NCBI GenBank assembly: GCA_963838925.1
Contig: CAWISW010000002.1
Span: forward strand, 384,001 to 448,000
DNA length: 64,000 nt
Direction of reading: 5' to 3'
From: an uncultured Nitrososphaerota archaeon
GTDB taxonomy: Archaea > Thermoproteota > Nitrososphaeria > Nitrososphaerales > Gagatemarchaeaceae
Part shown: positions 48,290-51,377 of the stretch, in pieces
Position numbering within the stretch: the stretch's first letter is position 1
Layout: the number at the start of each line of letters is the position of its first letter
Position numbers and translations under genes: made by a program
Notes under the pieces: generated by a model
The model's database searches: none
Seen by the model: the letters and a program-made list of their open reading frames with translations, nothing else
Told to the model about the DNA's origin: nothing

Positions 48290-48751
48290 CTAGTTCGTCA
48301 CGGTCATCGTCACGTTGTTGGAGCGGGCCGTGCTCCCGTCGGCGAAGGTCACCACCGCGTAGACCTGGTTGACGCCCACGTCCGAGGGGTCGGCGGGGCC
48401 GGAGTCGATGACGTACGTGTAGTGCGTTGAGGTCACGTTCCACGCGAGGTCTCCGTAGACGTGGTTCCTGAACACCTGGTGCAGGGAGACGGGGGCGGTA
48501 GAGTTGGGCACGGAGATGGAAAGCAGCAGCTCCTGTCCGAGCGCGTAGGTCGCGTTCGTGACCGGGTTCCCGCTCGGGTCGATCGCCCTCGCCACCACCT
48601 GGACTGAGGAGGCGGTCGACGTGGAATGGTCGGTCGCCTCGACATACATTCCCAGGACCATCGCGCCCCCGATGACGAGGATGAGGATGGCTGCCACCGA
48701 GGACTGTCCGATAGCGCCCCTTGAGTCGAAGAGTTTCAGACTGCCGCTCAA
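48290..48751 (-). CDS. Secreted/pilin-like protein with class III-like signal peptide
   Basis: SRGA|IGQSSVAAILILVIGG; beta-rich C-terminus; TTG start 48751, TATA-like TTTAAG near 48779-48784. Confidence 0.55.
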   Translation of the reverse strand: MSGSLKLFDSRGAIGQSSVAAILILVIGGAMVLGMYVEATDHSTSTASSVQVVARAIDPSGNPVTNATYALGQELLLSISVPNSTAPVSLHQVFRNHVYGDLAWNVTSTHYTYVIDSGPADPSDVGVNQVYAVVTFADGSTARSNNVTMTVTN

Positions 48752-48905
48752 CTCCGGCGTGCCTCCAGCCTGCCCAGCCTTAAATAGCCGCCCTGAGCCC
48801 CTCATCAATACAGGAGTGTAAGGGTACGCCAACACACGGTTGGCCTCGAGGCGATTAACCTCGGCAAAGCCGATGGGCGGCTAAATAGTCTGACTCCCTG
48901 AGCAG

Positions 48906-49544
48906 ATGATGACTCTGAAGAACTGCAGAACTTGCGGTAAGGCTCTCCCCAAGCGCGACTCCCAATTCTGCGACAGAGCATGCTACTCCCAAGCCTACAG
49001 GAATGGGATTATCACGAACCGGGGCTGGTTCAGGAAAGGAATACCCTCTCTCAACAAGGGGAAGACGCTCGAGTCTTGGGTCGGCAAGGAGAGAGCCCGA
49101 GAAATTAGGCACAGGATGTCGGAGAACTCGAAGGGGAAGGCCGGTCAACTCAGGAGGTTGAACGAGGATCCGCGGGTCTTGGGCAAGAGAAGGCTTTCTC
49201 GCAGGTTCCACGAGGCAGTCGTGCAGACCCTCGTCAAGGAGTTTAGAACCTTGGGTTGGAGGTGCTACACTTTGTCAGAGTACGTCAAGGAAGAGAGGAC
49301 ACCGGACGCGATTTTGTTTGACGGAAGGGAGTTAGTAGCTTTGGAGGTCGAAGTGAAGAAGAAGTGGAAGCCCACCGAAGCTTCGATGACTCGGCGGCTA
49401 ACTGATTTGAATGGTTCGTCAAGATTCTTCGATAGGACCAGCGTCGTATTTCCAGATGAGGGACTCGATATGGCCGAGCAGGTCCCCATGCTTGTTGGCG
49501 AGATATTGAATCGCAAAAGATTATATGAGGACTCCCCGAGCTAG
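48906..49544 (+). CDS. Homing-endonuclease-like protein (Zn finger + NUMOD-like motifs + PD-(D/E)xK-type domain)
   Basis: CRTC...FCDRAC; GWFRKG...NKGK and EIRHRMSENSKGK NUMOD3-like motifs; TPDAIL...ALEVE; more AT-rich than flanks. Confidence 0.7.
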   Translation: MMTLKNCRTCGKALPKRDSQFCDRACYSQAYRNGIITNRGWFRKGIPSLNKGKTLESWVGKERAREIRHRMSENSKGKAGQLRRLNEDPRVLGKRRLSRRFHEAVVQTLVKEFRTLGWRCYTLSEYVKEERTPDAILFDGRELVALEVEVKKKWKPTEASMTRRLTDLNGSSRFFDRTSVVFPDEGLDMAEQVPMLVGEILNRKRLYEDSPS

Positions 49545-49568
49545 AAATCGGAGGATTGAAAATACAAC

Positions 49569-49764
49569 ATGCCGACCCACGGGAGTCAGCAGCTAAGAGC
49601 AACTCTTACTGCCTCCAATCACTAAGGCCGGGAAAGTCCGATCGCAAACTCCGAAGATCGAGGGGAAGGTCCACAGAAGCAAGATCCCTAAGGTAAGGAA
49701 CACCCGGACCTACATCAAGAGATTTACTCTAAAGAGAAAACCTGGACAGAATTGGAGACTTTAG
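49569..49764 (+). CDS. rps30e: 30S ribosomal protein eS30, split: join(49569..49587,49619..49764)
   Basis: Spliced product [54 protein letters not shown] (54 aa); absent from the ORF track. Confidence 0.9.
49588..49618 (+). other. 31-nt bulge-helix-bulge pre-mRNA intron
   Basis: Helix GGAG:CTCC, 3-nt bulges TCA and AAT, internal hairpin GCAG-C-TAAGAG-CAA-CTCTTA-CTGC. Confidence 0.82.
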
Positions 49765-51377
49765 ACTCCGATTCTCAAGACGGCAGAGAGGCGGCGGCTA
49801 TCTCCTCGATAGTCGTCTCCATTCTCTCTGGCCAGATTGCCTCACGCCACCAGCTCGAGCAGGCCAAGAAGGAGGCCGCCAAGCGTCACCGCCTCGACAA
49901 GTTCCTCACAAACTCTCAGATCTACCTCGCGCTCACACCGGAAGAGAGGAACGGGAGGAAGGAGATCTTCAGGGTCCACCCGCGAAGGAGCGCATCGGGC
50001 ATAGTGATCGTCACGGTCTTCACCTCTCCCGCGAGCTGCCCGCACGGGACCTGCGTCTATTGCCCGGGAGGGCCCTCCATGGGCACGCCCCAGAGCTACG
50101 TCCCCGACGGCCCGAGCATGCGGGGTGCCAAGGCGGTGGGCTTCGACCCGTTCCTTCAGGCCCAGAAAATGCTGAAGAAGTACCTCGACAGGGGGCACGA
50201 GGCGTCCAAGGTCGAGTTGATGGTCGAGGGCGGGACGTTCCTCGCGATGCCCCGCGACTACCAGAAGTGGTTCATCAAGGGCGCCTTCGACGGGCTGAAC
50301 TGCGCCCCCACCCCGACAGCCTCGCTGGAGCAGGCGCATGCCGCCAACGAGTCCGCCGAGTACAGGTCGGTCGGGCTGACGATCGAGACCAAGCCAGACT
50401 GGTGCCGCCCCGAGCACGTTGACATGCTTCTCTCGTACGGCGTCACAAAGGTGGAGATAGGCGTCCAGGCGCTGAGGGACGAGATACTCGCCAGGAGCAA
50501 CCGGGGCCACACGGTGCAGGACACGGTCGACGCCTTCCAGGCCGCGCGGGACTCCGGCCTGAAGATAGCGGCCCACATGATGCCCGGGCTTCCGGGGTCT
50601 AACCCGGGGGACGACCTAGCCGACCTCCTAAGGCTCTTCGAGGACGAGTCGCTCAGGCCGGACATGATGAAGCTGTACCCGACGACGGTGGTCAGGGGGA
50701 CCGCCCTGGCGAAGATGTGCGAGGCGGGCCTCTACAGGCCCTACGACCTCGAGACCGTCGTGAGACTCATCGCCGAGATGAAGGTCCACGTCCCGAGCTG
50801 GCACAGGATCATGAGAATCCAGCGCGAGATCCCAGAGGCGGACATCACCGCCGGGAGCAGGGCGGGAAACCTCCGGGAGCTGGTCCTGGCGAAGGTGAAG
50901 GAGGACGGGAACTCGTGCGGCTGCATACGGTGCCGGGAGGTGGCCATGGACTCGCCATCAGCGCTCGGGGAGAGCGAGCAGGGAGACCTGGTCATGCGAA
51001 AGCAAGACTACGGGGCCTCAGGGGGGACAGAGGTCTTCGGGACATACGAGTACGAGAAGACGGGGAAGCTCGCCGGGTTCGTCAGGATGAGGTCCCCATC
51101 CGACGTGGCGCACCGGCGTGAGCTGCAGGGCGGAGCGTGCATCGTCAGGGAGCTCAAGGTCTACGGGAGGGTGGTGTCCGTCGGCTCCCACGACGAACAG
51201 GCTTTCCAGCATCGCGGCCTTGGCCACTCCCTCTTGGAGGCGATGGAGCAGGAGGCGCGAGAGGCCTTCGACGCCCGCACCCTCCTCGTGATGAGCGCGG
51301 TCGGGACTAGGAACTATTACCGCAAGTTCGGGTACGAGCGGCTCGGCCCGTACATGGCGAAGCAGCTGCCAGCATAG
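49752..51377 (+). CDS. elp3: Elp3 tRNA U34 carboxymethyltransferase (radical SAM + acetyltransferase)
   Basis: CPHGTCVYCPGG, GGTF, IETKPD, VEIGVQ, HMMPGLPG, RIQREIP, CIRCRE, RELKVYG, QHRGLG; true start may be slightly downstream. Confidence 0.95.
   Translation: METLDSDSQDGREAAAISSIVVSILSGQIASRHQLEQAKKEAAKRHRLDKFLTNSQIYLALTPEERNGRKEIFRVHPRRSASGIVIVTVFTSPASCPHGTCVYCPGGPSMGTPQSYVPDGPSMRGAKAVGFDPFLQAQKMLKKYLDRGHEASKVELMVEGGTFLAMPRDYQKWFIKGAFDGLNCAPTPTASLEQAHAANESAEYRSVGLTIETKPDWCRPEHVDMLLSYGVTKVEIGVQALRDEILARSNRGHTVQDTVDAFQAARDSGLKIAAHMMPGLPGSNPGDDLADLLRLFEDESLRPDMMKLYPTTVVRGTALAKMCEAGLYRPYDLETVVRLIAEMKVHVPSWHRIMRIQREIPEADITAGSRAGNLRELVLAKVKEDGNSCGCIRCREVAMDSPSALGESEQGDLVMRKQDYGASGGTEVFGTYEYEKTGKLAGFVRMRSPSDVAHRRELQGGACIVRELKVYGRVVSVGSHDEQAFQHRGLGHSLLEAMEQEAREAFDARTLLVMSAVGTRNYYRKFGYERLGPYMAKQLPA

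Follow-up and report, generated by a model that had tools for sequence, protein, structure and literature searches.

How non-coding archaeal introns of the bulge-helix-bulge type are gained and move between genes is an open question. Known archaeal homing concerns long ribosomal RNA (rRNA) introns that carry their own LAGLIDADG genes, and the archaeal protein-gene introns described in the parts of the literature covered are essentially those of cbf5. The question bears on a locus within a 64,000-nucleotide (nt) stretch of DNA from an uncultured Nitrososphaerota archaeon (the window, meaning the whole stretch analysed; all coordinates are positions within it, and the genome to which it belongs is termed G000), where a free-standing nuclease-like gene lies directly upstream of rps30e, the gene of ribosomal protein S30e, which is itself interrupted by a 31-nt insert. 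The reading that we favour, and to which we give slightly better than even chances, is that the upstream gene encodes a free-standing homing endonuclease of an undescribed family, genetically coupled to a 31-nt intron devoid of any open reading frame (ORF), as in collaborative homing. DNA cleavage, its site and immunity via the intron are our inference.

The 31-nt insert in rps30e

Re-reading of the sequence confirmed the coordinates and anatomy of both genes given in a preliminary description of this DNA, including its claim that conserved codons of rps30e are interrupted (HGS/LTK, split by the 31 nt). Exon 1 reads ATG CCG ACC CAC GGG AGT C and exon 2 begins TC ACT AAG GCC GGG AAA, and once the 31 nt are taken out, AGT C runs on into TC ACT and an S30e protein of 54 amino acids (aa) results. 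With the 31 nt kept, frame 1 stops at TAA (49620-49622), and no ATG, GTG or TTG start was found in the frame of exon 2. A genome search gave this single rps30e match in G000 and no second copy, and for the 47-aa product of exon 2, 52 of 61 related genomes have one matching locus.

When the region alone is folded, exon GGAG (49582-49585) pairs with intron CUCC to form a central helix, with UCA (49586-49588) as the 5′ bulge, GCAG/CUGC as the inner helix and AAU following the central helix on the 3′ side. In each bulge, the archaeal splicing endonuclease severs the RNA after the second of the three bases; such cutting gives ...AGT C/TC ACT... here, and the predicted cuts, C/A and A/U, fall exactly on the frame-restoring junctions. 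A strict hBHBh′ motif, with a 4-base-pair (bp) central helix, two 3-nt bulges and both outer helices, was not found in this fold, in which the 3′ bulge is followed by a single G-C pair and a distant 3-bp GCC/GGC helix. As the 3′ bulge is without a proper outer helix, the motif is relaxed rather than strict.

The insert was searched for in 97 genomes of the family to which G000 belongs and in genomes of other families. It occurs at the same codon, once each, in 41 of the 97 family genomes; 32 have the uninterrupted HGSLTKA pattern, 24 neither and none both. A reversed control pattern matched nowhere in the same 97 genomes, and the intron pattern was found in none of 304 genomes of 19 other families sampled in the order. 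For covariation, 39 of the 40 intron copies fetched were aligned (G034 was excluded for its 46-nt intron, and G119 was not included). The 12 proposed pairs are formed in 97.5% of the cells of this alignment, and six of them show changes on both sides; at pair 15-49 (GC in 26 copies, AU in 11), a G-to-A change in an exon Gly codon is offset by a C-to-U change in the intron. None of 500 shuffles reached the observed pairing, slid-partner controls were 22-55% paired, and RNAalifold found the same helices independently. The 31-nt insert is a conserved structured RNA element, beyond what chance would give.

From its sequence, we infer that the insert is spliced from RNA. G000 carries two EndA paralogues (tRNA_int_endo, 95.9 and 78.5 bits) and one RtcB, and the two paralogues would be compatible with the broad-specificity heterotetrameric type of splicing endonuclease treated in the part of PMC5829648 covered. 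It is very improbable that the insert is no intron at all, with rps30e being a pseudogene or read by frameshifting or bypass, and the upstream ORF encoding an unrelated Hjc-like repair nuclease. The 3′ cut site without a proper outer helix, and with it the departure from a strict bulge-helix-bulge motif, would suit this view, but the insert stands at one codon in 41 genomes, compensatory changes preserve its helices, the predicted cuts restore the frame exactly, exon 2 is conserved and each intron genome has this rps30e copy only.

Variation in rps30e extends beyond this insert (hereafter intron 1). In G034, intron 1 has grown to 46 nt by a run of GTC repeats in the loop, with the flanking helices kept. 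A second mini-intron of 19-20 nt lies between the AGK and VR codons at related loci, not in the window, and has an apparently canonical bulge-helix-bulge motif (for example, GGGG/AAA/UGCC..GGCA/CCCU/UUA); seven genomes have it without intron 1 and eleven, including G034, together with it. A gene of 54 codons thus has two alternative intron sites, polymorphic between close relatives. The two allele types, intron and intronless, are further set apart by their promoters, Shine-Dalgarno sequences and start codons. ACG stands at the start-codon position in 15 of 16 inspected rps30e alleles with an intronless site, G022 having ATG; it follows a Shine-Dalgarno-like GGAG or GGTG box by about 8 nt, no in-frame ATG, GTG or TTG was seen nearby, and intronless alleles may use ACG as a near-cognate start. 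Intron-bearing alleles start with ATG (33 of 40) or TTG (7 of 40).

The nuclease-like protein

The protein encoded upstream of rps30e consists of a four-cysteine zinc ribbon (residues 1-35), a part formed by long helices (about 36-100) and a nuclease domain (about 100-212). Invariant in all 12 intact close homologues are C7, C10, C22 and C26 of the ribbon, the motif NKGRTLESWVG...I..MS.NS of the helical middle part, and H102, P133-D134, A145, E147, E149, K152, K155 and FFD of the nuclease domain, whose helix 1 carries H102 together with E/D103. The zinc finger and PD...ExE motif claimed in the preliminary description are thereby borne out, whereas its NUMOD-like element found only a weak match, Pfam NUMOD3 (PF07460) being hit in one of 14 relatives (E 0.0076) and in none of 12 close homologues. 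Look-alikes proposed by a language model were phage NUMOD3-plus-TnsA-like or DUF559 proteins, with scores of 0.84-0.88 that serve as leads only.

Scans of the ORF against Pfam, NCBIfam and PHROGs gave nothing above cut-off, and the family is rare: when 1.84 billion representatives were searched exhaustively with HMMER, 40 relatives were found at E ≤ 1e-3 and six at E ≤ 1e-30. Among PDB sequences searched with a profile, Hjc resolvases ranked first (4tkd_A, E 0.019; 1hh1_A, E 0.028); the Hjc matches span E 0.019-0.8, and their PD...ExK is aligned on PD134...E147xE149. In an AlphaFold2 (AF2) model (pLDDT 83.3), helices at 89-115 and 158-170 and strands at 119-122, 135-138, 143-148 and 177-181 were observed, and the alpha-beta-beta-beta-alpha-beta core of the PD-(D/E)XK superfamily is present. 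Foldseek placed Archaeoglobus fulgidus Hjc at the top (2wj0_A, E 2.3e-3, probability 1.00), followed by an R2 restriction-like endonuclease and VRR-NUC, and its best matches include Hjc of A. fulgidus, S. solfataricus and P. furiosus. The VIA aligner, which is independent of Foldseek, gave Hjc 2wcw_A with Z 7.5, a root-mean-square deviation (rmsd) of 3.8 and 103 aligned residues; its Z values of 7.5-6.0 to Hjc, VRR-NUC, I-Ssp6803I, McrC, Bax1 and Can2 are, being below 8, middling by the aligner's own note, and PD-(D/E)XK nucleases make up the majority of its top 25. By profile search, Foldseek and VIA alike, the C-terminal domain, for which the preliminary description had proposed a check of the nuclease fold, is modelled with a PD-(D/E)XK fold that most resembles archaeal Hjc resolvases.

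The protein is, however, distinct from Hjc, as evidenced by its position below the Pfam cut-off, its 100-residue N-terminal extension and a separate Hjc-family match above cut-off in G000 (G000:C3:788659-788850). The gathering cut-off of PF01870 (21.1 bits) was reached neither by the relatives (best E 0.033, with matches in 4 of 14) nor by the close homologues (E 0.094, in 1 of 12), and the window protein gave no PF01870 match at E ≤ 1. This separate Hjc, the sub-threshold score and the presence of the gene in only 16 of 97 genomes also speak against an unrelated Hjc-like repair nuclease. At the putative active site, which has D134 and E147 as invariant residues, E149 stands where (D/E)-x-K canonically has lysine, an ExE variant perhaps comparable to BamHI-like sites; the invariant K152 and K155 follow and could take the place of this lysine. 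Residues 96-212 are predicted to form a homodimer (score 0.63 versus 0.02 for the best control), with agreement between runs in at least 23% of contacts and a partner pLDDT of at least 79; the score passes a mark that was attained for 20 of 30 solved homodimers and for 1 of 23 single chains, and the predictor may owe this pass to solved Hjc dimers that it has memorised.

Distant homologues (P0007, P0008 and similar) are without the zinc ribbon or carry C2H2 fingers, and a profile built from eight of them matched G000 only among 401 genomes of the phylum. In the closest metagenomic relatives, at six loci (74-80% aa identity), the position of ATG ATG in the window reads ACG ATA or ACG GTA, and these copies seem to be without a standard start codon.

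Coupling of the two elements and the relic upstream

The nuclease gene is present in 16 of the 97 family genomes, distributed over five of ten genera, with one copy each. An intron-bearing rps30e follows 9-55 nt 3′ of it in 15 of 15 assessable genomes, the locus of the sixteenth, G099, ending at a contig edge, and the gene was found in none of the 32 genomes with an uninterrupted site; the co-occurrence predicted in the preliminary description thus holds in this sample. In every nuclease genome, the sole rps30e is interrupted at the intron 1 site. Fifty-eight metagenome loci contain a nuclease relative; in 49 of them the sequence continues for 99 nt or more downstream, and 48 of these fit the intron pattern. 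The forty-ninth, L104, has the intron and a G-run shorter by one base: its exon 1 reads CACGGAGTC, one G fewer than all other intron alleles, which would shift the frame and could be an assembly error or a defective allele. Among 401 genomes of the class, strong nuclease matches are confined to the family of G000, with weak 100-aa matches in another family, and no nuclease relatives were found in the viral contigs or phage records searched.

Twelve nuclease copies are intact, and those of G018, G101 and G064 contain stops or frameshifts; a frameshifted copy at the genome locus L039, retrieved by a single-protein search, looks identical to that of G064 in this stretch. In G074 (N-terminal 60 aa, E 2e-10) and G031 (C-terminal part of about 30 aa, E 1e-3), two genomes scored as nuclease-less in the profile search at E ≤ 1e-3, remnants of the gene immediately precede the rps30e promoter, and the other 23 of 25 inspected nuclease-less intron genomes have the rps30e promoter only. 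In a tree of the neighbouring ELP3-like gene, G018, with its disrupted nuclease, is sister to the intronless and nuclease-free G017 (support 97/92). The ratio of nonsynonymous to synonymous substitution rates (dN/dS) is 0.07-0.12 in four pairs with unsaturated dS. On this life-history evidence, the nuclease gene is very likely selfish and mobile, although much of its history is vertical or within genera, given that its tree broadly follows the genera.

A trace of the arrival of both elements appears to be preserved in G000, upstream of the nuclease gene. The relic contains a TATA-like TTAAATAG (48780-48787), a Shine-Dalgarno-like GGAGTG (48813-48818) and the first 16 nt of a coding part, ACG CCA ACA CAC GGT T (48826-48841), with ACG at 48826-48828. 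Base for base, it matches G017 at about 88% identity over the promoter and initial codons of the intact intronless rps30e there, and alignments to G022 and G020 were obtained as well. By ELP3, G022 (92% aa) and G017 (90% aa), both intronless and nuclease-free, are the closest relatives sampled. The similarity ends after GGTT, where the intronless genes continue CG C/TT ACA, the slash marking where interrupted alleles have the intron. The relic thus stops 3 nt short of the insertion site; on a longer reading, which takes GGCCT as a mutated CGCTT and adds 5 nt with two mismatches, it would extend 2 nt past that site. A second copy of CCNACNCAYGG was found in G000 only, and at none of the 15 other genome nuclease loci or the 58 metagenome loci.

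The relic is of the intronless type (ACG CCA ACA, GGAGTG) and the active gene of the intron type (ATG CCG ACC, GGAGG, AAGATTATAT promoter). Tandem duplication was ruled out as its origin, as the two starts belong to different allele types with different start codons, promoters and Shine-Dalgarno sequences. Positions 48842-49618 were also considered as one large nuclease-carrying intron, removed by splicing from the relic as its exon, and this was rejected after inspection revealed neither a frame-restoring junction nor a matching central helix.

Between the relic and the nuclease gene, GGGCGG(C/T)TAAAT and about 45 further nt are common to the upstream regions of the nuclease genes in G018 and eight metagenome loci (L095-L102), whose neighbours beyond the shared block differ. 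The GC content drops at 48750-49950, to 49-56% over the relic, the nuclease gene and rps30e versus 63-67% in the Nop56 and ELP3 flanks. No right-hand recombination boundary is visible in sliding identity plots against three intronless-type and three intron-type relatives, because species divergence (about 80%) is too high. The sequence suggests that the relic is the scar expected from a break at the insertion site that was repaired off a nuclease-plus-intron donor, and that the nuclease and the intron invaded G000 together as a selfish pair.

In the mechanism that we propose, the nuclease, composed of a zinc ribbon, a helical DNA-binding part and a dimeric Hjc-like PD-(D/E)XK domain, would recognise the uninterrupted HGSLTKAG-coding sequence of intronless rps30e alleles and cut both DNA strands at, or close to, the point of intron insertion. 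Repair off a chromosome with nuclease and intron would then transfer to the recipient not only the nuclease gene and the intron but also exon 1 and the promoter and start of the intron type, being primed from the exon-2/ELP3 side and joined at the left end without homology. In G000, this invasion would have been one-sided, leaving the old intronless promoter and the first 16 coding nt as the relic. In a carrier, the 31-nt insert would split the recognition site and so prevent self-cutting, and the host EndA (two paralogues) and RtcB would remove it from the RNA, so that S30e is still made. The insertion site is taken as the target because of the relic, because carriers are always interrupted there and by analogy with F-CphI/psbA. 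When uninterrupted, this site codes for the S30e residues that are most conserved, and targets of that kind are favoured by homing endonucleases. As to the wider proposition, that ORF-less bulge-helix-bulge mini-introns of archaeal protein genes spread by free-standing, resolvase-derived homing endonucleases with the intron as immunity element, we consider the chances evenly balanced.

A selfish free-standing nuclease could, alternatively, have its target elsewhere (intronless homing), for instance in the intronless promoter or leader or in a neighbouring gene, with the intron belonging to the allele lineage first invaded and riding along by linkage. The patchiness, the decay series, the GC trough and the variable upstream neighbours apply equally to such a nuclease, a gap of only 9-106 nt lets linkage explain the counts of 15 of 15 and 48 of 49, and intron-type alleles have their own promoter and start codon. 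However, we consider it unlikely, given that the relic breaks off not in the promoter or leader but about 3 nt or less from the insertion site, that no nuclease genome has an rps30e uninterrupted at the intron 1 site, and that this site, coding for the most conserved S30e residues, is of the kind favoured in homing. Less probable again, and improbable in our judgement, is a domesticated or accessory host factor, such as a DNA/RNA-binding regulator or a helper for the relaxed splice motif. Strong purifying selection (the dN/dS values above), the largely genus-following tree, the fixed position directly 5′ of rps30e, whose promoter reaches into the last codons of the ORF, and a weak likeness to the A. 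pernix splicing endonuclease 3ajv_C (Foldseek rank 33, probability 0.96) would fit such a role, but 26 of the 41 intron-bearing genomes get by with neither an intact nor a disrupted nuclease gene, pseudogenes and fragments occur commonly, G000 already has RtcB, a separate Hjc and two EndA paralogues, and the relic shows that the cassette arrived by replacing another allele.

Several observations weigh against collaborative homing. The nuclease and the intron are so close (9-106 nt) that linkage alone could explain their exclusivity, and any recombination exchanging the 5′ region of rps30e would exchange the nuclease too; as kin are not independent, the association looks stronger in the counts than it is. 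The 26 nuclease-less genomes among the 41 show that the intron persists without the nuclease, and ordinary allele replacement could add to the patchiness, the allele types being distinct in promoter, Shine-Dalgarno sequence and start codon. Long vertical residence with a possible host function also fits the genus-following tree combined with strong purifying selection. Nuclease activity is assumed by analogy, the lysine of (D/E)xK being a glutamate, and the structural Z values are middling. Only one event is recorded by the relic, which was seen at 1 of 16 genome loci and at none of 58 metagenome loci; its end can be placed no more closely than about 5 nt, and a chance junction near the insertion site, within a tolerated zone of about 100 nt, has by our estimate a few-percent probability. 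Taken overall, the interpretation offered in the preliminary description is partly supported.

Table 1. Features of the rps30e locus, with positions in the 64,000-nt window
Feature	Position	Strand	Remarks
Relic of an intronless-type rps30e start	48776-48841	+	TATA-like box, Shine-Dalgarno-like box, first codons
Left end of inserted cassette	48842-48905	+	block common to upstream regions of other nuclease genes
Free-standing nuclease gene	48906-49544	+	212 aa, stop TAG 49542-49544
Intron-type rps30e expression signals	49516-49554	+	TATA-like AAAGATTATATG 49516-49527; Shine-Dalgarno GGAGG 49550-49554
Spacer, nuclease gene to rps30e	49545-49568	+	24 nt, carries GGAGG
rps30e, whole including intron	49569-49764	+	ATG start at 49569
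rps30e exon 1	49569-49587	+	MPTHGS and first base of Leu codon
Mini-intron, bulge-helix-bulge type	49588-49618	+	31 nt, ORF-less
rps30e exon 2	49619-49764	+	last two bases of Leu codon to ...NWRL, stop TAG 49762-49764
181-aa ORF	48290-48835	-	hydrophobic segment; weak HYR-like Pfam match, E 0.006
ELP3-like radical-SAM and GNAT protein	49752-51377	+	541 aa from TTG, overlapping the end of rps30e

The left end of the cassette holds a TATA-like box of the nuclease gene itself, CTAAATAG (48881-48888), only about 20-25 nt before the ATG, and the nuclease messenger RNA (mRNA) is therefore probably leaderless. The TATA-like AAAGATTATATG of rps30e overlaps the last codons of the nuclease ORF, and AAGATTAAAT/AAGATTAATC together with GGAGG is kept upstream of intron-bearing rps30e whether the nuclease is present or not. 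The ELP3-like gene is syntenic 3′ of rps30e in nearly all related loci. The true start of the 181-aa ORF probably lies further in, as its listed 5′ end overlaps the relic promoter, and homologous sequence precedes rps30e in G017 and G022. At three loci (G018, G014 and L099), the nuclease gene directly follows Nop56. Nothing in Rfam matched 48600-49900 at E ≤ 1, the window contains no tRNA according to ARAGORN, and a sigma-70 promoter scan found none, such promoter models not applying to archaea.

Novelty and comparison with known systems

Literature searches, with supplementary files and subscription journals outside their scope, found no report of an intron in rps30e/S30e, of thaumarchaeal mRNAs with introns of the bulge-helix-bulge type or of such an intron in partnership with a free-standing nuclease. 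The concept of collaborative homing is already known from phages; new are the nuclease family, the presumably protein-spliced 31-nt type of intron, the archaeal-chromosome host and the apparent invasion scar preserved there. The locus offers a new nuclease family with the life history of a homing endonuclease, a ribosomal-protein gene with two polymorphic alternative mini-intron sites among close relatives, and natural intron-plus and intron-minus alleles as substrates, together with a relic that points to the cut site. If our reading is true, collaborative homing would be extended from phage group I introns to protein-spliced introns of cellular chromosomes, providing a concrete mechanism for the gain of tiny introns of this kind; the window would keep the scar of an invasion into an essential ribosomal-protein gene, and the nuclease could yield a new programmable-site scaffold.

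In cyanophage S-PM2, F-CphI and the psbA group I intron constitute a case of collaborative homing (Zeng, Bonocora and Shub 2009, as presented in the part of PMC6083498 covered). According to the same part of that source, the free-standing endonuclease gene adjoins a gene with an ORF-less intron, as in the window; F-CphI is specific for the intronless allele and the intron blocks self-cleavage, both being only proposed for the window; and F-CphI derives from the Holliday-junction-resolvase-type Endo VII, a counterpart to the Hjc-like fold predicted here. The fold of F-CphI, however, is Endo VII/HNH-like and not PD-(D/E)XK, and its system, as described there, belongs to a phage, with a self-splicing group I intron and with cleavage shown biochemically, whereas the putative one of the window resides on an archaeal chromosome in an essential ribosomal-protein gene, with a 31-nt insert that would need EndA and RtcB.

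PD-(D/E)XK is counted among the six recognised families of homing endonucleases in the part of PMC6083498 covered. Two known homing endonucleases, I-Ssp6803I (2ost, PD-(D/E)XK; Z 6.6, rmsd 4.4, 102 residues) and I-Bth0305I (3r3p, EDxHD; Z 6.5, rmsd 4.4, 94 residues), share the fold class of the window model without detectable sequence similarity. The genes of both lie within bacterial or phage group I introns. Unlike them, the window nuclease has a zinc ribbon, a long helical N-terminal half and ExE in place of ExK, and its gene lies outside the intron. Hjc (PF01870; 2wcw, 1gef and 1hh1) is the best profile and structural match for residues of about 100-210, with an aligned PD...E motif and a symmetric dimer also predicted for the window nuclease; the latter nevertheless falls below the Pfam cut-off, has an extra DNA-binding-like N-terminal half of 100 residues and occurs in 16 of 97 genomes, whereas Hjc is universal.

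On the side of the intron, a bulge-helix-bulge intron is known from the cbf5 pre-mRNA of Crenarchaeota (PMC2738675, covered in part). As far as that part goes, it is likewise a short ORF-less intron in a protein gene, presumably removed by the tRNA-splicing endonuclease and gained or lost among relatives, and no nuclease partner is reported. The present case differs in its gene, rps30e, in its lineage and in having two alternative sites in a gene of 54 codons. LAGLIDADG homing endonucleases are encoded inside long archaeal rRNA introns. Homing of archaeal small-subunit rRNA introns has been suggested (in the part of PMC3082918 covered), and the likeness to our proposal is that bulge-helix-bulge introns would spread at the DNA level through endonuclease breaks and repair. 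In contrast to these rRNA introns, the intron of the window is too small to encode anything, and the nuclease coupled to it lies outside and belongs to another family.

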